Shown here piece by piece: positions 2 through 12,034 of a stretch of 12,034 nucleotides of DNA. Made by a program: the position numbers and the translations under genes. Position 1 is the stretch's first letter. Each line of letters opens with the position of its first letter. Source of the DNA: a bacterium (GTDB lineage Bacteria > Eisenbacteria > RBG-16-71-46); assembly GCA_043779265.1 (NCBI GenBank), contig JAYWEM010000052.1, positions 1 to 12,034 of the forward strand. The letters are read 5' to 3'. A model generated the notes under the pieces. It was not told where the DNA came from. It did not search any database and was given only the letters and a program-made list of their open reading frames with translations.

Positions 2-607
2 CTCGGGGCGCTCACCGTGTGGAAGCTGCTCGATCCCTCGGTGGTCAGTGGGCATCTGGCTGTCGCGCTTCTGCTCTTCGCCTCGGTGATCACGATCGCC
101 GTGGTGAGCCATCTCGAGTCGCGTGCGCCGGTGACCAGCCTCCCTCGGCCCGCGGGTCTGCTGCCGCTGCTCGGGTTCACGACGCTCGCGCTGTGGTTCC
201 AGTCCGTCCTCGGCGGCATCGTCAGCACGAATCACGCGAGCCTCGTGTGCCCCGACTGGCCGACCTGCGGTGGCGTGTGGTTCCCGGCGCTCGAGGGGCT
301 GGTGGGCGTGCACATGCTGCACCGCTACGTCGCCTACGGGGTGACCGTTCTGATGTGCTTCGTCGCCGCACGCTTGTGGCGAGCGCCCGATCCGACGGTC
401 CGCATGCTCGGGCATGCCCTCCTGATCCTCACGATCAAGCAGGTCGCACTGGGCATCTGCAGCCTCCTGCTCGGGGTGCCGGTGTTCCTGTCGGCCATCC
501 ACCTCGCCAACGCGGCGGCGCTGATCGCGCTCTCGCTCATCGCCACGTTGCGCGTCGCCGCACTCTCAGCACCGAGCCCGGCGCTGGCGAACGCCCCGGC
601 ACGATGA
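2..607 (+). CDS. ctaA: Heme A synthase (COX15/CtaA family), 5'-truncated by the window edge
   Basis: Frame is open from base 2 (LGALTVWKL...). Shows helical His motifs SGHLAVA, VHMLHRY and AIHLANA, QSVLGGIVS, and the loop Cys pair CPDWPTC. Lies directly upstream of heme O synthase. Confidence 0.92.
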   Translation, partial: LGALTVWKLLDPSVVSGHLAVALLLFASVITIAVVSHLESRAPVTSLPRPAGLLPLLGFTTLALWFQSVLGGIVSTNHASLVCPDWPTCGGVWFPALEGLVGVHMLHRYVAYGVTVLMCFVAARLWRAPDPTVRMLGHALLILTIKQVALGICSLLLGVPVFLSAIHLANAAALIALSLIATLRVAALSAPSPALANAPAR

Positions 608-617
608 GGATGATCCG

Positions 618-1535
618 ATGAGCGTCGCCCTGCCGAGCGGCAAGAGCGCCCGCACGGCGATGGCCTGGGTCGAGCTGACCAAACCCAGCATCATCTCGCT
701 CGTGCTCTTCACGGGGCTTCCCGCGCTGCTGATGGCCGCGGGCCCGGGCTGGCCGGAAGCCCGCGTGTTCTGGGGGGCGTTGGCCGGGATCACGCTGTCG
801 GCCGCCTCCGCGGCGAGCTTCAATCACTACTTCGATCGCGACATCGACGCGCTCATGCGGCGCACGCAGACCCGGCCGCTGCCCTCGGGAGCCCTGCCGC
901 CGATCGCCGCGCTGTCGCTGGGCTTCGTGCTGGCGGGCGCGGCCTGGGCCGTGCTCATGCTCACGACGAATCTGCTGGCGAGCGCGCTGGCGATGAACAA
1001 CATCTTCTACTACGCGATCGTCTACACCGTCTGGCTCAAGCGCCGCACCCCGCAGAACATCGTGATCGGCGGCGGGGCGGGGGCTTCTGCGCCGCTCATC
1101 GCGTGGGCGGCAGTGACCGGCCGACTCGATCCGCCAGCATGGCTGCTCTTCGGCATCATCTTCCTGTGGACGCCGCCGCACTTCTGGGCCCTGTCGCTCT
1201 ATCGCCGCGACGACTACGCGCGTGCCGGGATCCCGATGCTGCCGGTCACGCATGGCGAGGCCGAGACGAGGCGCCAGATCCTCGGCTACACGCTGGTGCT
1301 GGTCCCGGTGACGCTCGGCGTCGCCCCGCTCGCCGGTCTTTCGTGGGTCTATCTGGTCCCGGCCACGCTTCTCGGCGCGCTGTTCCTCTGGCTGGCGGTG
1401 CGCCTGTACCGCAAGCCCTCGACTCCGCACGCCATGCAGATGTTCCGATTCTCGATCCTCTACCTGTTCGCGCTCTTCATGATGATGACGGTGGATGCCG
1501 GCCTCGCCGCATTCGGTCCGCCACGGCTCGGATGA
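618..1535 (+). CDS. ctaB: Protoheme IX farnesyltransferase (heme O synthase)
   Basis: Motifs ELTKP, NHYFDRDIDALMRRTQTRPLPSG, YTVWLKRRTPQNIVIGG, FLWTPPHFWAL and DDYARAGIPMLPV. GAGGA RBS at 606-610. Confidence 0.97.
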   Translation: MSVALPSGKSARTAMAWVELTKPSIISLVLFTGLPALLMAAGPGWPEARVFWGALAGITLSAASAASFNHYFDRDIDALMRRTQTRPLPSGALPPIAALSLGFVLAGAAWAVLMLTTNLLASALAMNNIFYYAIVYTVWLKRRTPQNIVIGGGAGASAPLIAWAAVTGRLDPPAWLLFGIIFLWTPPHFWALSLYRRDDYARAGIPMLPVTHGEAETRRQILGYTLVLVPVTLGVAPLAGLSWVYLVPATLLGALFLWLAVRLYRKPSTPHAMQMFRFSILYLFALFMMMTVDAGLAAFGPPRLG

Positions 1536-1559
1536 TGAAGAAGATCAACCCCGCTTCAC

Positions 1560-1588
1560 TTGTCGAGTTGTCGTCAATCGTGTATCCG
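1560..1588 (+). promoter_or_regulatory. Possible sigma70-type promoter for the oxidase structural operon
   Basis: TTGTCG (1560-1565), 17 nt, TATCCG (1583-1588) in the largest intergenic gap of the cluster. The -10 match is weak. Confidence 0.3.
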
Positions 1589-1680
1589 TGCCGTTCTCGG
1601 CACTCAGTTGGAATCCGCTGGCCGCGGCGCGCTTCGCTCTCCTGCCTGGGCCGTGCGGTGTCCCCTATCCGGAGGCGACC

Positions 1681-2328
1681 TTGTTGAGGAAGGCGCGATT
1701 CATCCTGGTCGCGGCCGTGCCACTCGCCGTGGCGCTTGCCAGCTGTGGTGACCCGGGCTCGGTCGACCTGGTCGCCGGAAGTGAGATCTACGACACCTGT
1801 GTGCCCTGTCACGGTGAGAACGGTGCGGGCGATGTCGTACTCCACGCTCCGCCCATCGCCGGCTTGCCGGAGTGGTACCTGGTCGAGCAGCTGACCAAGT
1901 TCAAGGCCGACATGCGCGGGGCACACCCCGACGACATCGAGGGCCACCGGATGCGCCCGATGGCGCGCACGCTCTCGAGCGAGGCGCAGATCGCCTCGGT
2001 TTCCAAGCATGTCGCGGGACTCCCGGCAGTGCACTCCGCCGAGACGCTCACGGGTGGCGATGCGGCCGCTGGCGCCGATCTCTACAACGGGATCTGCGTC
2101 GCCTGCCACGGAGCCGACGCCAAGGGCAATGTCGACATGAAGGCCCCGCCGCTGGTCGGTCAGGCGGACTGGTACATGGTGTCGCAGCTCCACAAGTACA
2201 AGGACGGCTTGCGCGGCGCCCACCCGGATGATGTGTGGGGAGGCACGATGCGCGCGATGTCCATGACCCTCGAGGACGAGCAGGCGATGAAGAACGTGGT
2301 CGCCCACATCCGCTCGCTTCCCCGCTAG
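1681..2328 (+). CDS. Diheme cytochrome c4/c553-like protein, probable lipoprotein
   Basis: GGAGG at 1671-1675 then TTG at 1681 (preferred to the 1495 start). Signal peptide ends in lipobox LASC. Two CxxCH motifs (CVPCH, CVACH) in two duplicated domains (APP.AG...WY.V.QL.K.K...RGAHPDD..G..MR.M..TL). Confidence 0.9.
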   Translation: MLRKARFILVAAVPLAVALASCGDPGSVDLVAGSEIYDTCVPCHGENGAGDVVLHAPPIAGLPEWYLVEQLTKFKADMRGAHPDDIEGHRMRPMARTLSSEAQIASVSKHVAGLPAVHSAETLTGGDAAAGADLYNGICVACHGADAKGNVDMKAPPLVGQADWYMVSQLHKYKDGLRGAHPDDVWGGTMRAMSMTLEDEQAMKNVVAHIRSLPR

Positions 2329-2482: not shown

Positions 2483-3193
2483 ATGATCGATCGTTGGCTG
2501 CAACAGGCCTCGAGCTACGCGAGTCAGATCGACGGGCTCATCCTGCTGGTGACCGTGCTCGTCGGCTTCTGGTTCATCGCCGCCGAGATCATGTTCTTCT
2601 GGCTCATCTTCCGCTTCCGCAAGCGTGACGGTGTGCCGACGCAGTACCTCTCGGGCAAAGAGAAGCACGTCAAGCGATGGGTGAACATCCCGCACTATCT
2701 GGTGCTGGTGTGCGACGTGTTCATCATCATCGCGGCCGTGAAGGTGTGGGTGCACGTCAAGCAGACGCTGCCGCCCGCGGACTCCACGATCCGCATCGTC
2801 GGGCATCAGTGGGCGTGGACGTTCACGCACCCGGGCGCCGACGGCCTGCTCGACACGGCGGACGACATCCGCACGACGGACAAGCTGAACGTCGAGGTGG
2901 GCAAGACCTATCACTTCAAGCTCCAGTCCACGGATGTGCTGCACAGCTTCTCGGTGCCCGTGTTCCGCCTCAAGCAGGACTCGGTTCCGGGGCGCACGAT
3001 CACCGGCTGGTTCAAGCCGACCAGGACCGGGGAGTTCGACATCCAGTGCGCGGAGATCTGCGGAATCGGCCACGGCATCATGGCCGCGCGGATCCACGTG
3101 GACACGGCCGAGCAGCATCACCAGTGGTTGGCGCAGAACAGCGCCATCGCCGACGCGGACGACGCGGCCGGCGAGACGACCACGACGGAGTAG
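2483..3193 (+). CDS. coxB: Cytochrome c oxidase subunit II (CuA)
   Basis: Two N-terminal TM helices, GHQWAW, DVLHSF, and the CuA motif CAEICGIGHGIM. No fused cytochrome c. Confidence 0.96.
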   Translation: MIDRWLQQASSYASQIDGLILLVTVLVGFWFIAAEIMFFWLIFRFRKRDGVPTQYLSGKEKHVKRWVNIPHYLVLVCDVFIIIAAVKVWVHVKQTLPPADSTIRIVGHQWAWTFTHPGADGLLDTADDIRTTDKLNVEVGKTYHFKLQSTDVLHSFSVPVFRLKQDSVPGRTITGWFKPTRTGEFDIQCAEICGIGHGIMAARIHVDTAEQHHQWLAQNSAIADADDAAGETTTTE

Positions 3194-3202
3194 GGGAGCG
3201 CC

Positions 3203-4915
3203 ATGGCCCAGCAAGCACACGCAGAGGCTCACGCGGGGGGACACGGCACCAGCGCCCACCACAAGGAGTCGTGGTTCAAGCACTACTTCTGGTCCACCGA
3301 CCACAAGATGATCGCCTTCCAGTACCTGTGGACGGGCATGATCATGGGGTTGATCGGTGCGTACACGGCCTACGTGTTCCGGATGCAGCTCGCCTTCCCG
3401 GGCCAGCCCGTCCCCGGATGGGGACTCGTCTCGCCGGGCGAGTACAACTCACTGATCACCACGCACGGCACCATCATGGTGTTCTGGGTGGCGATGCCCG
3501 TCTTGATCGCAGCGTTCGGCAACTTCCTGATTCCGCTCATGTGCGGCGTGGACGACATGGTGTTCCCACGCCTCAATCGCCTCAGTTATCAGATCTTCCT
3601 GCTGAGCGCGATCCTGATCGTGGCCTCGCTGTTCGTGAAGGGCGGCGCGTTCGGCGGCGCCTGGACGGCCTATCCGCCGCTGTCCGCGGATGCCCGATAC
3701 AGTCTCACCCCCATCGGATCGTCACTCTGGGTGATCGCGGTCGCACTCGAGTTCGTGGCCTTCCTGATGGGCGGTATCAACTTCATCGTGACCGCGATGA
3801 ACTCTCGAGCACCCGGCATGAAGGCGCTCGATGTCCCCATCGTGGTGTGGTGCATCGTCATCGCCAGCCTGCTGTTCATGGCGTCGGTCGGGCCGTTGTT
3901 CGCAGGCGCGGTGATGCTGCTGTTCGACCAGACGCTCGGCACGGGCTTCTACAATCCGGCACGAGGCGGTGACCCGATCCTGTGGCAGCATCTGTTCTGG
4001 TTCTTCGGTCACCCCGAGGTCTACGTCGTGTTGTTGCCCGCCATGGGCATCGTCGCCGAGATCATCGCGGTGTTCGCCCGCAAGAAGCTGTTCGGCTACA
4101 AGACGATCCTCTACACGATCATCGCCACGGCCGTGCTGAGCTTCTTCGTCTGGGCGCATCACCAGTTCATCGCCGGCATCGACCCGCGCATGGCGAATGT
4201 GTTCACGGTGACGACGCTGCTCATCTCGATCCCGATCGCCGAGATGTGCTTCCTTTACATCGCCACGCTCTACGGCGGCTCGATCCGGCTCGGCACGCCG
4301 ATGCTGTGGGCGCTGTCGTTCATCGCCACGTTCCTGCTCGGCGGCGTGACCGGCATCTACCTGGGTGCGAGCGGCTCGGACATCTACTTCCACGACACGT
4401 ACTTCGTCGTAGCGCACTTCCACTATACGTTCTTCCCGATCGCCATCATCGCGACGTTCGCCGGCTTCACGTTCTGGTTCCCCAAGATGTTCGGTCGAAT
4501 GCTCGACGAGCGTCTCGGCAAGATCCACTTCTGGGGCACGATCATCCCGTTCAACACGATCTTCATCCCGCTGTTCTTCACCGGCGCGATGGGCGATCAC
4601 CGCCGCATCTACAACTACATGAACTTCCCCGATCAGTCGGGGCCCGAGCTGCAGATGCTGCGCATGATCGCGACCATCTCGTTGCTGGTGATGCTGGCGT
4701 TCCAGCTCGTGTTCTTCTTCAACGTCTGGAAGTCGTTCCGCGGACCGAAGAATGCGGAGAAGAACCCGTGGAAGTCGAACACGCTCGAGTGGACGGCCGA
4801 TTCCCCGCCGCCGCACGGCAACTGGGCCGAACTGCCCACGGTCTACCGCGGACCCTACGAGTACGGCGTGCCCGGGCGCGCCACGGACTACTGGCCTCAG
4901 AACGAGAAAGACTGA
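3203..4915 (+). CDS. coxA: Heme-copper oxidase subunit I, A-family (A1-like GHPEVY), atypical proton channels
   Basis: STDHK, ITTHG, WTAYPPLS, LFWFFGHPEVY, VWAHH, HDTYFVVAHFHY and HRR. All six His ligands and the cross-linking Tyr position are present. Confidence 0.97.
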   Translation: MAQQAHAEAHAGGHGTSAHHKESWFKHYFWSTDHKMIAFQYLWTGMIMGLIGAYTAYVFRMQLAFPGQPVPGWGLVSPGEYNSLITTHGTIMVFWVAMPVLIAAFGNFLIPLMCGVDDMVFPRLNRLSYQIFLLSAILIVASLFVKGGAFGGAWTAYPPLSADARYSLTPIGSSLWVIAVALEFVAFLMGGINFIVTAMNSRAPGMKALDVPIVVWCIVIASLLFMASVGPLFAGAVMLLFDQTLGTGFYNPARGGDPILWQHLFWFFGHPEVYVVLLPAMGIVAEIIAVFARKKLFGYKTILYTIIATAVLSFFVWAHHQFIAGIDPRMANVFTVTTLLISIPIAEMCFLYIATLYGGSIRLGTPMLWALSFIATFLLGGVTGIYLGASGSDIYFHDTYFVVAHFHYTFFPIAIIATFAGFTFWFPKMFGRMLDERLGKIHFWGTIIPFNTIFIPLFFTGAMGDHRRIYNYMNFPDQSGPELQMLRMIATISLLVMLAFQLVFFFNVWKSFRGPKNAEKNPWKSNTLEWTADSPPPHGNWAELPTVYRGPYEYGVPGRATDYWPQNEKD

Positions 4916-4925
4916 GGGAGGACCT

Positions 4926-5504
4926 GTGAGCGCCAAGACCGTCGCGACCACCCGTTCCGCCATGAACATCCCCACCGGCCGTCTTGGCGTGTGGTGGCTG
5001 CTCGTCTCCGAGATCGTGATCTTCGGCGGACTGCTGGTGGCTTACATCATGAATCGCCAGGCGCACTCGCATGATTGGGCAGCGCAGGCCGCGGTGACGG
5101 ACTGGCGCATCGGCGCCTTCAACACGTTCGTCCTGCTCAGCTCGAGCCTCTCCGCCGTGTTCGCCCATCAGGCGGCCGAGAAGGGCGACGGCAAGAAGGC
5201 GGCGCGCCTGCTCTACGTGACGTGCCTCGGCGGACTCATCTTCCTGCTCGTGAAGAGTTTCGAGTGGGCCACCGAGATCTCGCACGGCTACACGATCATG
5301 TCGCACACGTTCTGGTCGTACTACTACACGCTCGCCGGTCTGCACGCGTTCCACGTGATCGCGGGAATGGCCGTGATGGTGTGGGTGGCCCGCACGGCTG
5401 CCAAGAATCAGGAGCTGCACCGCGTCGAGAACGTGGGCATCTACTGGCACTTCGTCGACATCGTCTGGATCTTCCTCTTCCCGCTGCTGTACATCGCCAA
5501 GTAG
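4926..5504 (+). CDS. coxC: Cytochrome c oxidase subunit III (short, 5-TM type), copy 1
   Basis: GAGGGAGG RBS then GTG 4926. Motifs WLLVSEIVIFGGL, NTFVLLSSS, LAGLHAFHV and YWHFVDIVWIFLF. Confidence 0.93.
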   Translation: MSAKTVATTRSAMNIPTGRLGVWWLLVSEIVIFGGLLVAYIMNRQAHSHDWAAQAAVTDWRIGAFNTFVLLSSSLSAVFAHQAAEKGDGKKAARLLYVTCLGGLIFLLVKSFEWATEISHGYTIMSHTFWSYYYTLAGLHAFHVIAGMAVMVWVARTAAKNQELHRVENVGIYWHFVDIVWIFLFPLLYIAK

Positions 5505-5513
5505 GAGCCGACC

Positions 5514-5891
5514 ATGTCCGCACACGCGCAGGGCCATGACACGAACTACCTGCGGGTCTACTTCCTGCTGCTGGGACTGCTGGTCGTGAGCATCGTGGGC
5601 CCGCTGTTCGAGATCCGCGTCGTCACGCTGATCACCGCGTTCGGTGTGGCGCTCGTGAAGGCCTACATCGTGGCCGTCAAGTTCATGCACCTGGATATCG
5701 AGAAGCCCATCATCCAGTGGCTCCTCGGAGTCGGGCTCGTCCTGATGCTGATCCTGTTCGGCGGATTGGCTCCCGATGTGATGAAGGACAAGGGGCGCAA
5801 CTGGGAGAAGGACGCGAGCTTCCATCAGTCGGCCGCTCCGGACGCGCATGGTGAGGACAAGGGACATGGCACCGGCGGCAGCGGTCATTGA
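5514..5891 (+). CDS. Cytochrome c oxidase subunit IV (CtaF/CyoD-like)
   Basis: AGGAG RBS, three hydrophobic helices, KAYIVAVKFMHL motif typical of prokaryotic subunit IV, and position after subunit III. Confidence 0.85.
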   Translation: MSAHAQGHDTNYLRVYFLLLGLLVVSIVGPLFEIRVVTLITAFGVALVKAYIVAVKFMHLDIEKPIIQWLLGVGLVLMLILFGGLAPDVMKDKGRNWEKDASFHQSAAPDAHGEDKGHGTGGSGH

Positions 5892-6459
5892 GCCGAACCT
5901 GAGGGCTGCGCCTCGGCGCGCCATCGAGCATGGCGTGTTCGCCATGCTGCTGCTGGTTTTCGCCGAGGTCATGCTCTTCTCGGGGCTCCTGTCGGCCTAC
6001 CTGATCGCCCGCGCGAGCGCGCTCCCCGGGACCTGGCCGCCGCCCGACCAGCCGCTCCTGCCGTTCGCCTCGACCGCGATCAACACGCTGGCCCTGCTCG
6101 CGAGCGGTGCGCTGCTGTGGCGGGCTCACGTGGCCTTCCGGAAGGACGAGGCCACGGCAACGAGGCTCACGGGCTGGGCGTTGGCATTGGGCGTGTTCTT
6201 CGTGGCATTCCAGGGCGTCGAGTGGGCTCGGCTGCTCGCGCAGGGCCTGACGCTCACATCGAGTAAGCTGGGGGCGTTCTTCTACACGATGGTCGGCGCA
6301 CACGCGCTGCACGCGGTGGCGGCGATCCTCGGCCTCGGCTGGGTGTGGTTGCAGATGCGCGCGGGCCGTGTGACGCGCTCCGCGTTCGGTGCAGCTCAGG
6401 TCTTCTGGTACTTCGTGGTGCTCCTATGGCCCGTCCTCTTCCTGCTGCTCTATCGCTGA
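5866..6459 (+). CDS. Cytochrome c oxidase subunit III-like, copy 2
   Basis: FAEVMLFSGL, NTLALLASG, FQGVEW, GAHALHAV and FWYFVVLLWPVLF. ATG 5866 overlaps the end of subunit IV. Confidence 0.9.
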   Translation: MAPAAAVIEPNLRAAPRRAIEHGVFAMLLLVFAEVMLFSGLLSAYLIARASALPGTWPPPDQPLLPFASTAINTLALLASGALLWRAHVAFRKDEATATRLTGWALALGVFFVAFQGVEWARLLAQGLTLTSSKLGAFFYTMVGAHALHAVAAILGLGWVWLQMRAGRVTRSAFGAAQVFWYFVVLLWPVLFLLLYR

Positions 6460-6719
6460 TCGGTGCGGCGCTCCTGGCGCCCGCGATCGCGCTCGCCTGT
6501 GCTGTCTGCGGCGCCGGTGAGGATGCGAGCAATGGACCGTTCCTGTGGTCCACCCTTGCCTTGTCCGCACTCCCGTTGCTGATGCTCGGGGGTGGTGTGG
6601 GGTGGGTGTGGTGGCGTCTGCGTGATCGCTGGGCGGATGAACTCGCCGAGCGCCACGCCTATGTCGCTCCTGATGCAGCCGGGACCGGTTCGACCGGTCA
6701 CAAGCCCGGGGGGGCTTGA
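6426..6719 (+). CDS. Small exported/membrane protein with CxxC motif (oxidase-associated hypothetical)
   Basis: ATG 6426 overlaps the previous gene. Signal-like N-terminus ends ALA-CAVC, followed by one TM helix and WWRLR. Confidence 0.7.
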   Translation: MARPLPAALSLIGAALLAPAIALACAVCGAGEDASNGPFLWSTLALSALPLLMLGGGVGWVWWRLRDRWADELAERHAYVAPDAAGTGSTGHKPGGA

Positions 6720-6792
6720 CGGCTGCGGAGCGCACGACGCACTCCGCGAGATCGGGCCCGACCTGACGGCTCGAATCGAGCGAGGAGGCGCC

Positions 6793-7983
6793 ATGCCGAA
6801 GTACCAGATGCACGGAGACGTCCCGGTGTGGGGGGACGTCAACGATCCGCATGCTCTCGAACAGATGCTGCGATGCCGCACCACCGCTGACGGCGGCGCG
6901 ATGATGGCCGACCACCATCTCGGCTACTCGGTCCCGATCGGGGGGGTGGTCGTCTACCGCGACCGCATCTCACCGAGCGGGGTCGGCTACGACATCGGCT
7001 GCGGCAACAAGGCGGTCCGGCTCGACGTGGATGCGGCCGAGGTGCGGCGGAACATCGCCACGCTGATGGACGACATCGCCTCGAACCTGTCGTTCGGCAT
7101 GGGGCGCCGCAATCCGACGCCCGTCGAGCACCCCCTGTTCGAGCCCGAACGAGAGGAGTGGAGCCATCCCGCGATCGCATCGCTGCGCGGCATGGCCGCC
7201 AAGCAGCTCGGCACGATCGGCGGCGGTAACCACTACGTCGACCTGTTCGTCGATGAGCTGGAGCGCGTCTGGGTGGGCGTCCACTTCGGCTCGCGCGGCC
7301 TCGGGCACAAGACGGCCACGTGGTTCCTCGAGAAGAACGGCGCGATCGATGCCATCCACGCCCCGCCACTCGAGCTCGATGTCGCGAGCGAGATGGGCGC
7401 GGGTTACATCGCCTGCATGCGGCTGGCGGGCGAGTACGCCTACGCCGGGCGCGACTGGGTGTGCGCCCAGGTGGCCCGCATGATCGGCGCGGACGTGGTC
7501 GAGGAGGTGCATAACCACCACAACTTCGCCTGGCATGAGGAGCACAAGGGCGAGCGCGTGTGGGTGGTGAGGAAGGGAGCGACGCCGGCGTGGCCCGGGC
7601 AGCGCGGATTCGTCGGGGCCTCGATGGGCGAGAACGCCGTGATCGTCGAGGGCATCGATTCCGAGGAGGCGCGGCTCGCGTACCGATCCACCGTCCACGG
7701 GGCCGGCCGTGCCATGAGCCGAACTGCCGCCAAGGGCCGGGTCGATCGCCGGACGGGCGAGGTACGCCGCCCCGGCCTCGTCTCGCCCGAGATGATGCGC
7801 GAGTGGGTGGAGCGGGCCGGGGTCGAGCTGCGAGGCGGCGACCTCGACGAGGCCCCGCAGGCCTACAAGCGGCTCGATGAGGTTCTCGCCTACCACGAGG
7901 CCAGCGTGCGCGTGATCCACACATTGAAGCCGATCGGGGTGGCGATGGCCGGGAGGGACGTGTTCGACCCGTTCAAGGACTGA
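6793..7983 (+). CDS. rtcB: RtcB family 3'-phosphate/5'-OH RNA ligase
   Basis: GAGGAGG RBS then ATG 6793. Motifs MADHHLGYSVPIGGV, GVGYDIGCG, QLGTIGGGNHY, VHFGSRGLG, HNHHN, RKGATPA, HGAGRAMSR and DEAPQAYK. Confidence 0.97.
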   Translation: MPKYQMHGDVPVWGDVNDPHALEQMLRCRTTADGGAMMADHHLGYSVPIGGVVVYRDRISPSGVGYDIGCGNKAVRLDVDAAEVRRNIATLMDDIASNLSFGMGRRNPTPVEHPLFEPEREEWSHPAIASLRGMAAKQLGTIGGGNHYVDLFVDELERVWVGVHFGSRGLGHKTATWFLEKNGAIDAIHAPPLELDVASEMGAGYIACMRLAGEYAYAGRDWVCAQVARMIGADVVEEVHNHHNFAWHEEHKGERVWVVRKGATPAWPGQRGFVGASMGENAVIVEGIDSEEARLAYRSTVHGAGRAMSRTAAKGRVDRRTGEVRRPGLVSPEMMREWVERAGVELRGGDLDEAPQAYKRLDEVLAYHEASVRVIHTLKPIGVAMAGRDVFDPFKD

Positions 7984-8012: not shown

Positions 8013-8042
8013 GAGCCCCGGCAGGGAAACCTGCCGGGGCTC
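8013..8042. terminator. Probable bidirectional intrinsic terminator between rtcB and the convergent tRNA 3' end
   Basis: Perfect 13-bp stem GAGCCCCGGCAGG / CCTGCCGGGGCTC with a GAAA loop. Flanked by AAAAGGTTC on the left and TACTTT on the right. Confidence 0.8.
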
Positions 8043-8047
8043 TACTT

Positions 8048-8102
8048 TGGTAGCGGGGGCTGGATTTGAACCAGCGACCTTCGGGTTATGAGCCCGACGA
8101 GC
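8048..8102 (-). tRNA. 3' 55 nt of initiator tRNA-Met(CAT); incomplete gene, probable attachment (attR-type) site
   Basis: Minus strand reads GCTCG TCGGG CTCATAA CCCGA AGGTC GCTGG TTCAAAT CCAGC CCCCGCT A CCA: CAT anticodon, three G-C pairs in the anticodon stem (initiator signature), intact T arm and CCA. The normal D arm is absent upstream. Confidence 0.9.
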
Positions 8103-8130
8103 ATCGTCTGCACCCAGCATGGAGGCTGGT

Positions 8131-8403
8131 GTGCACAAGAGACCCGCAGGTTTCCGTCTTCTCTCGTTCCAACGTGAGCATCTCCGCGACGCGCGTCACG
8201 ACCGCATCACGTCCGTCGACCCAGCGACGCTGACCGGCCGGGCATTCGCTCGCCCGACCCACCTCGAAGGACCGCAGTACGGCCGCGGCCTGGCGCTGAT
8301 CATCGCGGCGACCGTCGTCGCGCTCCTCGCATGGGCCGCTCTCTCGCCCTCCCTGGACCAGGTGCTGCCGCAGTCGGCAGAGGTCGCGCAGGTGGGGCGA
8401 TGA
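8131..8403 (+). CDS. Hypothetical protein with one C-terminal TM helix
   Basis: GGAGG 8121-8125 then GTG 8131 (in frame with ATG 8119). Hydrophobic stretch LALIIAATVVALLAWAAL. Stop overlaps the next ATG (ATGA). Confidence 0.6.
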   Translation: MHKRPAGFRLLSFQREHLRDARHDRITSVDPATLTGRAFARPTHLEGPQYGRGLALIIAATVVALLAWAALSPSLDQVLPQSAEVAQVGR

Positions 8404-9083
8404 GCGCCACTGTGATTCGGATCGAGCCCGCTCAGGGGCACAGCGTCCACGTCGAAGCGCCGACCCAGCCCCTGTGGACGCCCTCGCTCAACGGAACGAA
8501 GCCGACGCCGTCGGTCGAGGCGCTCACCGGGCTCGTGCGGTGTGGGCAGGCGGCTGAGCGCGCGATTTCGACGCTCCTCGAGATGAAGGTCGAGTACCTC
8601 GATCTGCTCCGGCTCAACGTGAGGAACGCCCAGGCGATGGTGGGGCGCGTTCGGCTGCGGCTCGAGGAGTACGACTCCGAGACGGAGCATCTCTGCGCGG
8701 ACATGGCCAGCAAGGCGCGTGCGGCTCGCGCCCGCCTCGGTGGGGCTCGGCGCGATTTCGACGACGCCCGCGACAGAGGCTCGGAGTACGTGGGTCCCAA
8801 CCTGGAGATCGTCGAGCGCGAGCTCTCCGACGTCGAGACGGTCGACCGCTCTCTGGTGGCCAACCGGCTGCTCAGTCGCGAGGCGACCGAGGACACGTTC
8901 TTCCGTGCCGTGCATGCGGCCGTCCACTGCTCGGAGCGGCTGTGGGAGCTGGTCGAGAGCCAGCTGCTGCCGCTCGAGGCGATCGTGACTGGCGGCAAGC
9001 GCGCGGCCGAGATGATCGAGCACCTCCGGACCGCACCCGGCGTGGAGTCACAGGGAACCGAACCGACGCAGGCCACCCACTGA
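8400..9083 (+). CDS. Hypothetical helical/coiled-coil-like protein
   Basis: ATG 8400 coupled to the upstream stop, preceded by GGTGGGG. 227 aa, rich in E/R/L/A, no recognised motif. Confidence 0.7.
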   Translation: MSATVIRIEPAQGHSVHVEAPTQPLWTPSLNGTKPTPSVEALTGLVRCGQAAERAISTLLEMKVEYLDLLRLNVRNAQAMVGRVRLRLEEYDSETEHLCADMASKARAARARLGGARRDFDDARDRGSEYVGPNLEIVERELSDVETVDRSLVANRLLSREATEDTFFRAVHAAVHCSERLWELVESQLLPLEAIVTGGKRAAEMIEHLRTAPGVESQGTEPTQATH

Positions 9084-9087
9084 TCGA

Positions 9088-9186
9088 GCCGGGGGGCGGC
9101 ACCACGACGGCGCGAAGGCAGCAGCACGCGTGTCCCGCAGACACGGTCGGCTGCGCGCCGAGGTGATGTGCACGTCGCCCCCCGGT
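9088..9186 (+). other. Long nested inverted repeat (candidate structured RNA leader) upstream of the ParB gene
   Basis: 9088-9100 pairs with 9174-9186 (13 bp, 2 G-U). Nested stems 9108-9114/9154-9160, GCAGC/GCTGC and 9129-9134/9140-9145. Confidence 0.55.
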
Positions 9187-9207
9187 CGTGACTTCAAGGA
9201 GGAACCC

Positions 9208-10695
9208 ATGCAGGCGGAACTCATCCCGGTCGCGTCCATCGCGGTTACGAAGGGCAACCCACGGAGCAGGTTCGACAAGGCACTCGACGCCGAGCTGGCG
9301 GCAAGCGTGCGCCAGGTGGGGGTGCTGCAGCCGATTCTGGTGCGACGCACGGACAAGGGCTGGCACGAGCTCGTCTGTGGGCACCGGCGTCTGGCGGCAG
9401 CGCAGGCGGCGGAGCTGGTGGAGATCCCGGCCGTAATCCGCGAGCTGACCGACGAGCAGGTGCTCGAGATCCAGATCATCGAGAACCTGCAGCGCTCCGA
9501 CGTCCACCCGCTCGATGAGGCGGAGGCCTACCGCCAGCTGCACGAGCGCTACAAGCACGACGTCGCGCGCATCGCCGGGAGGGTCGGCCGCTCGGTGGCA
9601 TACGTGTACGACCGCATCCGGCTGACGGCTCTGACGGCCGAGGCCAAGGAGCACTTCCGTGCCGGCCGCATCGAGGCGGGGCACGCGGTGATCCTCGCCC
9701 GGCTCAAGCCGAAGGACCAGGGGCGGGCCATCGACGCCGACAAGGGCGGGCTCTTCCAGGGCGAGTCGCTCCTCTGGGATCCGGACGAGAAGGAGACCGA
9801 GGCGAAGCCCTACCACGGGCTCAAGCACCGCACAGTGCGCGAGCTGCAGGCGTGGGTGGATGAGCATGTGAAGTTTGACGCGACGGCCGCCGAGGTCCCA
9901 CAGCTCTTCCCCGAGACCGCTAGGACACTCGAGGTGGCGAAGGCGGTTGCCGAGAAGGTCGTCCACATCACGCGTGACTACATGGTCCAGCGCGATGCAC
10001 GCGACGGCAACAGGGTGCTCACCGAGCGCTCGTGGATGCGCGCGGACGGCACTGGCAAGCACAAGCGCTGCGACAAGGGCGTGATGGGCGTCCTCGTCAT
10101 CGGCCCGGGCCGCGGCGAAGCCTTCCGCGTCTGCATCGACAAGACGTGCCGAACCCACTGGGCTGCCGAACAGCGCGAAGCCGCCCGGCGGAATGCCGCG
10201 AGGGAGGCAGGCGACGGCGCTGCGGCCTCGGCCCGCTCCGAGGCTGCGAATCGACGCGAGCGGGAGCGGAGGGACAAGCAGGAGCTCGAGGCGAATCGCT
10301 GGAAGAAGGCGACCCCGGCGCTCATCGAGGCGCTCAGGGATGCCCTGGTCAGCGCGGACATCTCGAGCTCTGGCCCCATAGCCGACTCACTCATCGAGGA
10401 TTGCTCGACCTACAGCTTCGGATCCAAGCATGCATCGAAGCTGATGAAGCCGGGCAAGACGGCGGAGGACCTCGTCCGCTACCTGGCGTTCATGTCGCTG
10501 GGCGGCGTGCTCTGCAACTGGGGCGCGGCCGAACACTTCCCCGGGATCGCCAAGAGCCTCGGCCTCGACCACAAGGCCGTGCTCGACCGCGCGGCCCCAC
10601 CGGCGCTCGTCGCGCCGGCGGCGAAGAAGTCGCCCAAGGCCAAGCCCGCGAAGCAACTGAAGAAGGCGAAGCCGCGCCGGAAGGCGGTGGCGTGA
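9208..10695 (+). CDS. ParB/RepB/Spo0J N-terminal domain protein with long C-terminal extension
   Basis: AAGGAGGA RBS, ATG 9208. NPRSRF, LAASVRQVGVLQPILVR, GHRRLAA (GxRR), ENLQRSDVHPLDEAEAY and HTH-like VARIAGRVGRSVAYV. Lys/Ala-rich tail. Confidence 0.9.
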   Translation: MQAELIPVASIAVTKGNPRSRFDKALDAELAASVRQVGVLQPILVRRTDKGWHELVCGHRRLAAAQAAELVEIPAVIRELTDEQVLEIQIIENLQRSDVHPLDEAEAYRQLHERYKHDVARIAGRVGRSVAYVYDRIRLTALTAEAKEHFRAGRIEAGHAVILARLKPKDQGRAIDADKGGLFQGESLLWDPDEKETEAKPYHGLKHRTVRELQAWVDEHVKFDATAAEVPQLFPETARTLEVAKAVAEKVVHITRDYMVQRDARDGNRVLTERSWMRADGTGKHKRCDKGVMGVLVIGPGRGEAFRVCIDKTCRTHWAAEQREAARRNAAREAGDGAAASARSEAANRRERERRDKQELEANRWKKATPALIEALRDALVSADISSSGPIADSLIEDCSTYSFGSKHASKLMKPGKTAEDLVRYLAFMSLGGVLCNWGAAEHFPGIAKSLGLDHKAVLDRAAPPALVAPAAKKSPKAKPAKQLKKAKPRRKAVA

Positions 10696-11186
10696 TGGCG
10701 TACGCGACCACGACCAGCGTGCCGATCGAGCGCACGCGACTGGCGATTGAGGAACTCACGCGCGAGAAGGGCGCAACGCAGTTCATGTCGGCGTTCGACT
10801 ACGGCGACGGCCGCGCGATCATCGGATGGAGCCAGCAGGGTCGGATGGTCCGACTGCAGGTGCCGCTTCCCAAGCCGGACGAGAAGCGGTTCCTCTACCG
10901 TCGAACCGCGCACGGCTGGTCGTACAAGGACCTGTCCAAGGAGAAGCAGCGACTGCTCTGGGAGCAGGCGTGCCGCTCCCGATGGCGTGCGGTCCTCCTC
11001 ATCCTGCTCGCCAAGTTCGAGGCCATCGAGGCCGACATCTCGACGTTCGAGCGGGAGTTCCTCGCGGACACGATGATGGCCGACGGGTCGACCGTCGGGG
11101 AGTGGATCCAGCCCCAGCTCGTGACCATGTACGCGAGTGGTCGCATGCCGGCGCTGCTCCCGGCAGCTGCGGGAGGCTCGCGATGA
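10695..11186 (+). CDS. Phage-type conserved hypothetical protein
   Basis: ATG 10695 overlaps the ParB stop (TGATG). Pattern YA..T.V...R...IE...GA..F...RWRA..L...AK.EA.E..I.TFE.EFLA.....DG.TVG resembles a phage hypothetical family I recall; not verified by search. Confidence 0.8.
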   Translation: MAYATTTSVPIERTRLAIEELTREKGATQFMSAFDYGDGRAIIGWSQQGRMVRLQVPLPKPDEKRFLYRRTAHGWSYKDLSKEKQRLLWEQACRSRWRAVLLILLAKFEAIEADISTFEREFLADTMMADGSTVGEWIQPQLVTMYASGRMPALLPAAAGGSR

Positions 11187-11541
11187 GCCTCCACCACACC
11201 GCGATCGCCGCCGCAGGGACATCTCGCCGTGCGCCATCTGCGGCAAGGGCACCATGCACACCGGTCTGCCGCTCGCGTGGCGGGTCACCGTCGAACGCTT
11301 CGGGTTCGACGCACGGGAGATCGAGCGCCAGCACGGCCTCGAGTTCGTGATCGGCAACCCGCTCCTCGCCCAGTTGATGGGCCCCGACGCCGCTCTCGCC
11401 AGTCGCTTCGACGGCCCGGGGGGTGGCCTCGTGTGCGAGGAGTGCTTCATGAAGCCGTACGCACTCGCACAGCTGTTCGACTCGATGGCCTCGCGCGGGG
11501 TGGAACCGAAGGAGGACGCGGATGGCCCGCCCCCGTCCTAG
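11183..11541 (+). pseudogene. Zn-ribbon-like (CxxC...CxxC) phage hypothetical, apparently frameshifted near its start
   Basis: GGAGG RBS and ATGA-coupled start at 11183 lie in a different frame from the protein-like body (SPCAICGKG...VCEEC, stop 11541). The only upstream in-frame start is a GTG at 11137 with no RBS. Confidence 0.55.
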
Positions 11542-11566
11542 GCAGGAGACACGCTACCAGCAGCGC

Positions 11567-12034
11567 ATGCGCTCGCGCCGACTCACGCGGGCCCGCACTC
11601 GCGAGCTCGAGCGACTCGAGTCCCAACCTGGCCCCGGGGTATTGCTGCTCATGCTGGCGGTGATGGCTCTGCTCGTGGGGACGCTCCTCTTCAACTCCTG
11701 CAAGGCGGACGCTGCCGTGCGCGTGCCGCTCGAGTGGTCGGCTCTTGATGGAGTGGAGCGCTACGAGGCGATCGCGCGCCGACCCGACGGCGTCTTCCTC
11801 TCGTTGAACCTCTGGGCGGACAGCACCGGGTCGGCCGTCCCGACCCTGTCGGCTCCCGGTGCCCCCCAGAGGGCGTGGGCCCTGGTCTCGGAGGACTGGC
11901 GAGCGGGCGCGTGGATGGTCCTCGTGCGCGCATGCAACTCCGCGGGCTGCGGCGGCTGGTCCAACGCGGTCGTGGTCACCGCCGGCATGCCCGACACGCT
12001 CTGGTACCTCGAGCGCGGAGGGCAGCCGCTCACG
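11567..12034 (+). CDS. Exported or membrane-anchored protein with fibronectin type III-like domain, 3'-truncated
   Basis: Frame is open from ATG 11567 to the window end (156 codons) and is absent from the ORF track. Hydrophobic VLLLMLAVMALLVGTLLFNSC, then LEWSALDGVERYE and VRACNSAGCGGWSN, matching FN3 strand patterns. Confidence 0.75.
   Translation, partial: MRSRRLTRARTRELERLESQPGPGVLLLMLAVMALLVGTLLFNSCKADAAVRVPLEWSALDGVERYEAIARRPDGVFLSLNLWADSTGSAVPTLSAPGAPQRAWALVSEDWRAGAWMVLVRACNSAGCGGWSNAVVVTAGMPDTLWYLERGGQPLT

Follow-up and report, generated by a model that had tools for sequence, protein, structure and literature searches.

The window analyzed here, a whole contig of 12,034 nucleotides from a 3.4-Mb bacterial genome (92% complete), encodes an A1-type heme-copper oxidase whose subunit I (570 residues, positions 3203..4915; all features lie on the plus strand unless stated otherwise) lacks the lysine of the canonical K-channel. 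It belongs to a clade in which this channel appears to have been dismantled and re-lined in both subunits, because subunit I gains new polar residues around the old pore and subunit II loses the entry Glu, E101, and gains H71 and D78. The enzyme is very probably an aa3-type cytochrome c oxidase reducing O2 to water; that its missing protons arrive through a rebuilt carboxylate/hydroxyl route is, in our judgment, an even call.

Canonical K-channel loss

The closest solved relative of subunit I (PF00115, E 4.5e-132) is that of Rhodobacter sphaeroides aa3 (1m56_A, phmmer E 2.7e-121). Residue equivalences, written as window residue (=R. sphaeroides aa3 residue), come from this alignment, which has no gaps over approximately residues 240-465 (helices VI-X) and compensating indels between 146 and 236; the constant offset of 14 proposed in the original prediction holds at each position it named. 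Subunit I has 12 transmembrane (TM) helices, and its AlphaFold2 model (85-row alignment, pLDDT 91.2) superposes on R. sphaeroides subunit I with a root-mean-square deviation (rmsd) of 1.3 Å over 502 residues (Z 51.9). Across the R. sphaeroides and Paracoccus denitrificans aa3 structures (PDB 1M56, 2GSM, 1AR1), the fold (rmsd 1.3-1.6 Å), the GHPEVY motif, the metal ligands, the His-Tyr pair, CuA, the Mg site and the Arg pair are all shared.

Helix VI (4010..4060) retains H270 (4010-4012), E272 and Y274 of the GHPEVY motif (E272 is E286 in R. sphaeroides numbering), carries A285 (4055-4057) in place of S299, and has Glu or Asp at 286. Helix VIII (4214..4258) keeps T338 and reads S342 (=A356), I345 (=T359; codon 4235-4237), E347 (=I361; GAG, 4241-4243), M348 (=K362; ATG, 4244-4246), L351 (=S365; 4253-4255) and Y352 (=W366). 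Alignment and codon check thus agree with the predicted replacement of K362, T359, S365 and S299 by M348, I345, L351 and A285, and with a Glu beside the lost Lys. Helix VIII is fixed at both ends (P344=P358; GGSI=GGSI); therefore, no register shift brings a Lys to position 362. The earlier claim that the entire channel is lost is right for these four residues, and the loss also reaches subunit II, but Y288 and T352 (R. sphaeroides numbering) are still present.

Two sets of homologues define the counts given below. The first comprises the best 120 protein matches to the window's subunit I (74-100% identity, query included); the second holds 120 matches from a search with the most divergent genome match, L015, namely 119 further proteins and one shared. 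Position 348 in the first set is Met (110), Thr (4), Leu (4) or Ala (2), and Lys is absent there from all 239 distinct homologues of both sets. A Lys hidden elsewhere on the helix is ruled out as well, with none within residues 336-356 in either set (0/120 and 0/120). The loss shared by 239 homologues, together with dN/dS values of subunit I well below 1 (0.13, 0.19 and 0.26 against three relatives), rules out a one-off allele or sequencing error, and the case in which close homologues keep K/T does not arise.

The catalytic core is intact. H88, H270, E272, Y274, H319, H320, H405, H407, D393, H397, R467, R468 and W154 are invariant in the first set (120/120), including the six His metal ligands and the cross-linking helix VI Tyr (Y274) that characterize heme-copper O2 reductases. 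GHPEVY with Glu286 (R. sphaeroides numbering) identifies the A family, A1 subtype, and the CuA-bearing subunit II and subunit III are also those of the A family. The D-channel residues D132, N121, N139, N207, Y33 and S142 (R. sphaeroides numbering) are each kept in 120/120; the A-type O2 path likewise retains W172, F282, G283 and V287. The A-family K-channel set (K362, T359, S365, S299 and subunit II E101) is missing.

Other families fit poorly. The B (ba3) and C (cbb3) families share a lysine-free Ser/Thr/Tyr channel, where T312 and G286 occupy the place of K362 (PMC12901375, Table 2), but lack the D-channel, which the clade keeps. The B-family channel positions S309 and T312 are occupied by I345 and M348, and ba3 sequence similarity reaches only E values of approximately 1e-12 to 1e-14, versus 1e-121 for A1. 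Unlike the C family, the clade has S313 at the helix VII Tyr place, its Tyr on helix VI, and CuA. It also differs from nitric oxide (NO) reductases (NORs), which have no Tyr cofactor and a Glu/Gln at the FeB site, in that Y274 is invariant. The NCBI label ‘cbb3-type subunit I’ carried by many clade members is, judged by these residues, a misnomer and would wrongly imply high O2 affinity.

The expectation of a conserved clade with a conserved operon is supported. In a 36-row tree (LG+G4, midpoint root, helix VI/VIII trait columns removed), the clade is monophyletic with 100/100 support, and trees of 84 and 50 rows give the same picture. It joins three K-less sister rows (L020; L021, Ca. Calescibacterium; P0122) in a 100/100 group, itself nested in a 100/99 group whose remainder is mostly K-bearing A1 enzymes. 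The remaining K-less groups are placed elsewhere, and a single origin for all K-less, S/T356 oxidases is rejected (AU p 3e-61, the groups having been picked after an earlier tree). By their record titles, carrier loci occur in Myxococcota, Gemmatimonadota, Ca. Eisenbacteria, Bdellovibrionota and Verrucomicrobiota; the nearest named relatives of the window's subunit I are Ca. Eisenbacteria. Among the carriers, a metagenome-assembled genome titled Klebsiella pneumoniae (L008) has the clade cassette (75% identity) and no other heme-copper match, and its label looks wrong; in another (L025, G062), subunit I is split over several frames, probably by sequencing indels.

Two further K-less groups were observed. 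One (P0163, P0185 and kin) is distinct from the clade, with Gln at 362, T/S359 kept and Glu at N207. The other (L127, P0127, P0203, P0207) is an A1 clade reading LAHPEVY and ISIPSVIIL; genome G052 carries both it and the present clade, and the subunit II of its second K-less oxidase was not found in the stretch examined.

Polar gains in both subunits

The first set was compared with the 165 K-bearing rows of an alignment of 268 (14 fragmentary or aberrant rows dropped, one left out), and a further 77 K-bearing rows served for position checks. S342 (=A356) is Ser in 120/120 clade matches, versus Ala or Gly in 164/165 K-bearing rows. T309 (=I323) is Thr in 117/120, versus Ile in 164/165 and 77/77. 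Further invariant gains by the old K pore are T305 (=A319) and Y352 (=W366), and T305, T309 and S313 (=G327) form a polar stripe on helix VII (4115..4141). Positions A356, G327, P315 and W366, which are K-channel walls (PMC10341450), thus read Ser, Ser, mostly Thr, and Tyr in the clade. Two candidates were discarded: S313 as a clade-specific residue, with Ser found there in 51/77 K-bearing rows, and window E286 (=H300) as a new one, with Glu common at this place in canonical enzymes (our own rows; PMC8239418, Fig. S7).

The Glu beside the lost Lys, the centerpiece of the original prediction, is one of several gains. E347 is present in 120/120 of the first set, but 24/120 of the second set, the L015 subclade, have Ile or Val at 347; all 24 have Leu at 309, and the remaining 96 combine Glu with Thr. 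A second buried Glu, E376 (=L390) on helix IX, occurs in 109/120 and 115/120 of the two sets, and the window itself has Thr at this position (4328..4330). Within the second set, 24 rows have E376 without E347, five have E347 without E376, 91 have both and none lacks both.

The D-channel is remodeled on helix IV (3749..3763), where E183 (=S197), A186 (=S200) and F187 (=S201) occur in 119/120 (one gap) and 120/120 of the two sets; S197, S200 and S201 are D-channel walls (PMC10341450). An acid at 183 (Asp or Glu) is found in all three full-length sister rows and in 0/77 K-bearing rows. Elsewhere in subunit I, two invariant residues near the active site, Q321 and T409, are clade-specific; Q130 is invariant too. 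Changes are also seen in the H-pathway region (residues 453-487), with T467 replaced by Ile, H472 by Phe and N494 by R487 (Arg in 120/120 of both sets).

Subunit II (2483..3193, PF00116) has an intact CuA site, with H154, C189, C193, H197 and M200 invariant in 39 rows, and Val63 at the position of the K-channel entry Glu (E101). Its second TM helix (TM2) bears a clade-specific buried polar pair (2693..2716), His71 (2693-2695) and Asp78 (2714-2716), conserved in 29/29 clade rows (28 distinct). Of 129 K-bearing subunits II, 89 could be scored by their ExxWxxxP motif and 40 were left unscored; none of the 89 has an acid at the D78 place. D78 lies in the outer half of TM2, a helix that exceeds its canonical counterpart by a few residues; the outer face of helix VIII presumably packs on TM2, as in the bovine structure. 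E34 of subunit II is variable and was rejected as a channel residue. Relative to the R. sphaeroides and P. denitrificans enzymes, the clade therefore lacks K362, T359, S365, S299 and E101(II) and has gained E183, T305, T309, S342, E347 (E376), H71(II) and D78(II).

Proton delivery in K-less oxidases

Loss of the K-channel is known at the sequence level, and the specific rebuild of this clade appears to be undescribed in the literature searched. K-less A1 enzymes appear in two subclades of the survey by Degli Esposti et al. (2021; PMC8239418, Suppl. Table S1 and Fig. S7): ‘Oligoflexia’, and ‘KC channel’, which contains Elusimicrobia, Ca. Calescamantes HR19 and Methylacidiphilum. Many K-less A2-type enzymes are listed there as well; both A1 subclades rest on sequence classification, without biochemistry. 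The present clade shares with ‘KC channel’ the A1 motif, the absence of Lys and polar residues at K(C) positions: read against the Fig. S7 columns, window E286, T305 and S313 are the equivalents of the protonatable positions 292, 316/319 and 327 tabulated for the C-family K(C) channel. It differs in that no Fig. S7 row shows its pattern Y A M I L E, in a figure that does not tabulate 361, 390, 197, 356 or subunit II 71/78. L021 reads F/T/F at 299/362/359, like the HR19 row, and is sister to the clade (100/100) in a tree without Elusimicrobia, Methylacidiphilum or Bacteriovorax references; unlike the clade, it has no E347, E376 or H71.

K-channel loss has also been described in acidophilic iron oxidizers (10.1101/2020.03.01.968255) and in Ferrigenium, where its effect is stated as unknown (10.64898/2026.01.22.701106). 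In the ‘2TM’ group of Acidithiobacillus, Acidithrix and Thioclava, and in Ferrigenium straubiae, the Lys and the subunit II Glu are likewise replaced by hydrophobic residues and the D-channel is kept. However, the ‘2TM’ group retains T359 and has two extra N-terminal helices, whereas the clade, with its 12 helices and no T359, sits among K-bearing Gemmatimonadota/Acidobacteria-type A1 enzymes in a tree containing no named ‘2TM’ member. In the classification of Murali et al. (2024; PMC11214002), ‘A’ stays one undivided class, and passages of PMC6431628 and 10.1101/592808 add nothing further. No biochemical study of it was found in the literature searched, which covered few subscription papers. 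The suggestion of an uncharacterized subfamily holds to that extent, but the category of K-less A1 oxidases has already been published (PMC8239418, supplements).

The K319M/K362M mutation stops model enzymes at the O->E step, and the D-pathway is able to supply the remaining seven of eight protons (PMC12901375; PMC8361435); a single proton, or two at most, would therefore need a new source in the clade enzyme. That its chemical protons take another route, as originally proposed, is the most likely reading. Electrons would pass from alternative complex III (ACIII) to a diheme cytochrome c, CuA, heme a and finally heme a3-CuB with its His-Tyr cofactor. Pumped and oxidative-phase chemical protons would enter through the D-channel, its upper half remodeled (S197E, S201F). 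In the reductive phase, one or two protons normally reach the Tyr through K362; here they may instead follow a rebuilt second route in the same protein region, a lysine-free hydroxyl/carboxylate chain from window E286 via T305, T309 and S313/S342 to Y274. The buried acids E347 and/or E376, with H71 and D78 of subunit II, would take over the relay and charge-compensation role. In favor of this arrangement, the new polar residues cluster at the old K-channel, the catalytic set is invariant, window E286, T305 and S313 sit at C-family K(C) positions, T309 and E347 are kept or lost together in all 120 second-set rows, and every row has E347 or E376. Likewise, L050 and L051, from an unrelated K-less lineage, have Thr at 356 and, at subunit II position 78, a Glu. 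The substitutions and how conserved they are, the intactness of the catalytic residues and the role in the genome are established here; we infer O2 turnover, the rebuilt route and which side chains touch.

Several observations weigh against a rebuilt route built on these residues. The 24-member L015 subclade has neither E347 nor T309, and the coupling of these two is a single evolutionary event. The sister rows are K-less without E347, E376 or H71; because such K-less enzymes do without them, these three residues are not required in the absence of K362. The sister rows do share an acid at 183 and S342, and a TM2 Asp is found in both with a subunit II sequence (L020, L021). In another K-less lineage (L160-L162), an acid at the D78 place occurs in 0/3 loci. 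S/T356 occurs in 74/88 K-less rows versus 1/165 and 7/77 K-bearing rows; in the latter 77, S356 stands alongside Lys in seven and S327 in 51. Independent pairs link K-loss to S/T356 in 3/4 cases (p 0.25), and this coupling is suggestive only. Finally, K-bearing A-type genes (L122, L123, L124) persist in some carriers.

A possible but rather doubtful alternative is that all eight protons per O2 enter through the remodeled D-channel, with E183 as an extra proton store and the new residues near helix VIII only filling and stabilizing a dead K pore. No gain is shared more widely than the acid at 183 (119/120, 120/120 and the three sister rows, versus 0/77 K-bearing rows), which the subclade without E347 also retains; it lies one to two turns below E272, among the D-channel walls S197, S200 and S201 (PMC10341450), in a pathway already able to carry seven of eight protons (PMC12901375). 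Yet K319M/K362M stops O->E although the D-channel is intact (PMC12901375), an acid at 183 is missing from most other K-less lineages, and a D-channel supply leaves the invariant S342, T305/T309, H71 and D78 and the constant presence of E347 or E376 unexplained. Improbable is an O2 reductase of lower energy yield that draws its reductive-phase chemical protons from the periplasm, e.g. past subunit II D78, as in cNOR. The position of D78 in the outer half of a longer TM2 and the loss of the cytoplasmic entry Glu and S365 would suit such uptake, but the polar stripe E286-T305-T309 runs toward the cytoplasm, efficiency would be sacrificed in an A-family enzyme often serving as sole oxidase, and no precedent was found in the literature searched.

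Coupling to another ion, also raised in the original prediction, is not supported and is very improbable. E347, E376 and D78 with nearby Ser/Thr could form a cation site, such a buried carboxylate and hydroxyl cluster resembles an Na+ site, and an Na+-pumping cbb3 oxidase is known. However, the full proton-pumping D-channel is kept (D132, N139, N207 and E286 invariant, R. sphaeroides numbering), not every one of the new acids is universal, and the Glu-Ala pattern of the ATP synthase c subunit is that of H+ types and lacks the Na+ signature. Different chemistry, such as NO reduction by an A-family derivative, fares slightly worse still: K362M leaves the oxidative phase unaffected, so a K-less site could suit another substrate, and Q321 and T409 are clade-specific and invariant. 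Yet the cross-link Tyr, which NORs lack (PMC11214002), and the CuB and heme ligands are invariant, there is no FeB Glu, no nirS, nirK or nosZ match was found in the 92% complete genome, and that genome would be keeping heme A synthesis and ACIII with no O2 reductase. A tail-less heme b leaving a water-filled groove at the active site is disfavored, with ctaA and ctaB kept in all 30 carriers. Finally, K362M abolishes turnover in the model enzyme, as would befit a sequencing error or a decaying, inactive gene, but 239 distinct homologues share the loss, dN/dS is well below 1 and the changes are coordinated in two subunits, which leaves this explanation scarcely credible.

Why A-type oxidases, the mitochondrial ones included, need two proton channels, and whether K362 acts as a wire or in charge compensation, is a long-standing question, addressed almost only with dead mutants. 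The clade offers a natural, selected K362M background, found in several bacterial phyla as the chief or only oxidase, and supplies a short list of compensating residues together with natural variants (E347 only, E376 only, both). We advance only tentatively that the whole cycle runs on one remodeled D-channel with a second internal Glu, or that a new carboxylate channel at the subunit I/II interface was reached more than once. If true, either would overturn the view that the K-channel Lys is mechanistically indispensable in A-type oxidases, and the clade substitutions would be a ready suppressor list for K362M; a D-only cycle would make the enzyme a mirror image of B- and C-family oxidases.

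Genomic setting and remaining features

Subunit I is the sole PF00115 match in the window's genome, and profile searches of this 92% complete assembly gave no cytochrome bd, cytochrome b, NirS, NirK or NosZ match. The genome encodes an actBCDE-like ACIII locus (gene names by our own reading) and a Sco protein. A second NrfD-family module with a 4Fe-4S partner is also present (L114, G000:C39).

Among 41 related genomes, 10 have the clade type, 19 published genomes carry a verified K-bearing A-type gene but none of the clade type, 5 give unclassified partial matches and 6 none. A strict either/or relation with canonical A oxidases was rejected: it holds in 9/10 close carriers, the tenth also having a K-bearing A2 fragment, and fails in two Myxococcota carriers. 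The ctaA-ctaB pair lies just upstream in 7/7 canonical loci examined and in 4/9 other carriers (one with a 1.8-kb gap). Compared with the window, ctaB is 64-71% identical in clade and canonical loci alike, whereas subunit I is 77-80% identical in the former and 42-45% in the latter. Because ctaB similarity is equal in both groups and subunit I similarity is not, one cassette (clade or K-bearing) has been swapped for the other at the same ctaAB locus, in one direction or the other. The original prediction of an intact operon and enzyme is supported, but the adjacent heme A/O genes to which it appeals are no clade-specific evidence, since ctaA and ctaB are the host's own and also flank canonical oxidases.

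The carrier survey covers 31 genome entries, of which 30 are distinct and two belong to sister lineages. In seven, the clade gene is the sole PF00115 match, and five of these are without a bd match, in genomes for which completeness is mostly not given. Carriers hold 20 additional heme-copper genes: 11 cbb3-type, three K-bearing A-type, two other K-less A-type, one unclassified and three NOR-like by motif. With 11 of 20 partner oxidases of the cbb3 type, the clade enzyme therefore fills the A-family slot. Matches to ctaA and ctaB, an indirect sign of heme A content, occur in 30/30 carriers searched (26 above the ctaB cut-off). This genomic pattern fits an ordinary low-affinity O2 reductase. 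Three carrier genes (L120, L129, L134) are Tyr-less, NOR-like heme-copper genes (HSSQQ), one without the helix VI His.

The window begins with ctaA (heme A synthase, 2..607, PF02628 E 1.8e-26), whose 5' part lies beyond the contig, and ctaB (heme O synthase, 618..1535, TIGR01473 324 bits, above cut-off). A diheme cytochrome c, the likely electron donor, follows (1495..2328, PF00034 in two stretches; true start probably downstream of 1495); its gene lies directly upstream of subunit II in clade loci, and both CxxCH motifs are invariant in 29/29 clade rows. Downstream of subunit I are a first short subunit III (4926..5504, GTG start, PF00510 E 3.6e-21), a caa3-type subunit IV (5514..5891, TIGR02229 above cut-off) and a second short subunit III (5848..6459, PF00510 E 1.8e-19). 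The order cytochrome c - II - I - IIIa - IV - IIIb is common to clade loci as far as contigs extend. The cassette ends with a small CxxC membrane protein of 97 residues (6426..6719), conserved in 13/20 clade loci with both Cys in 14/14 rows; it has no Pfam, NCBIfam or PHROG match and only hypothetical clusters in the Atlas, and is a candidate copper-delivery or assembly factor. Two short subunits III, the caa3-type subunit IV, the diheme cytochrome c and the CxxC protein set this operon apart from those of R. sphaeroides and P. denitrificans aa3. A promoter and terminator scan gave nothing above chance.

An RtcB-family RNA ligase (6592-7983, PF01139) stands beside the oxidase in 0/16 relatives' loci. 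On the minus strand, 8035-8100 is the 3' part of a tRNA-Met gene without its 5' part; ARAGORN finds no tRNA, and the sequence here matches at 87% over 101 bases a stretch on contig C89 next to a tRNA-Met call. It is probably the attachment site of an integrated element starting near 8100. The following region (8119-12034) is phage- or mobile-element-like, encoding a ParB-domain protein (9130-10695), a PHROG 17260 protein (10695-11186) and others without a family.

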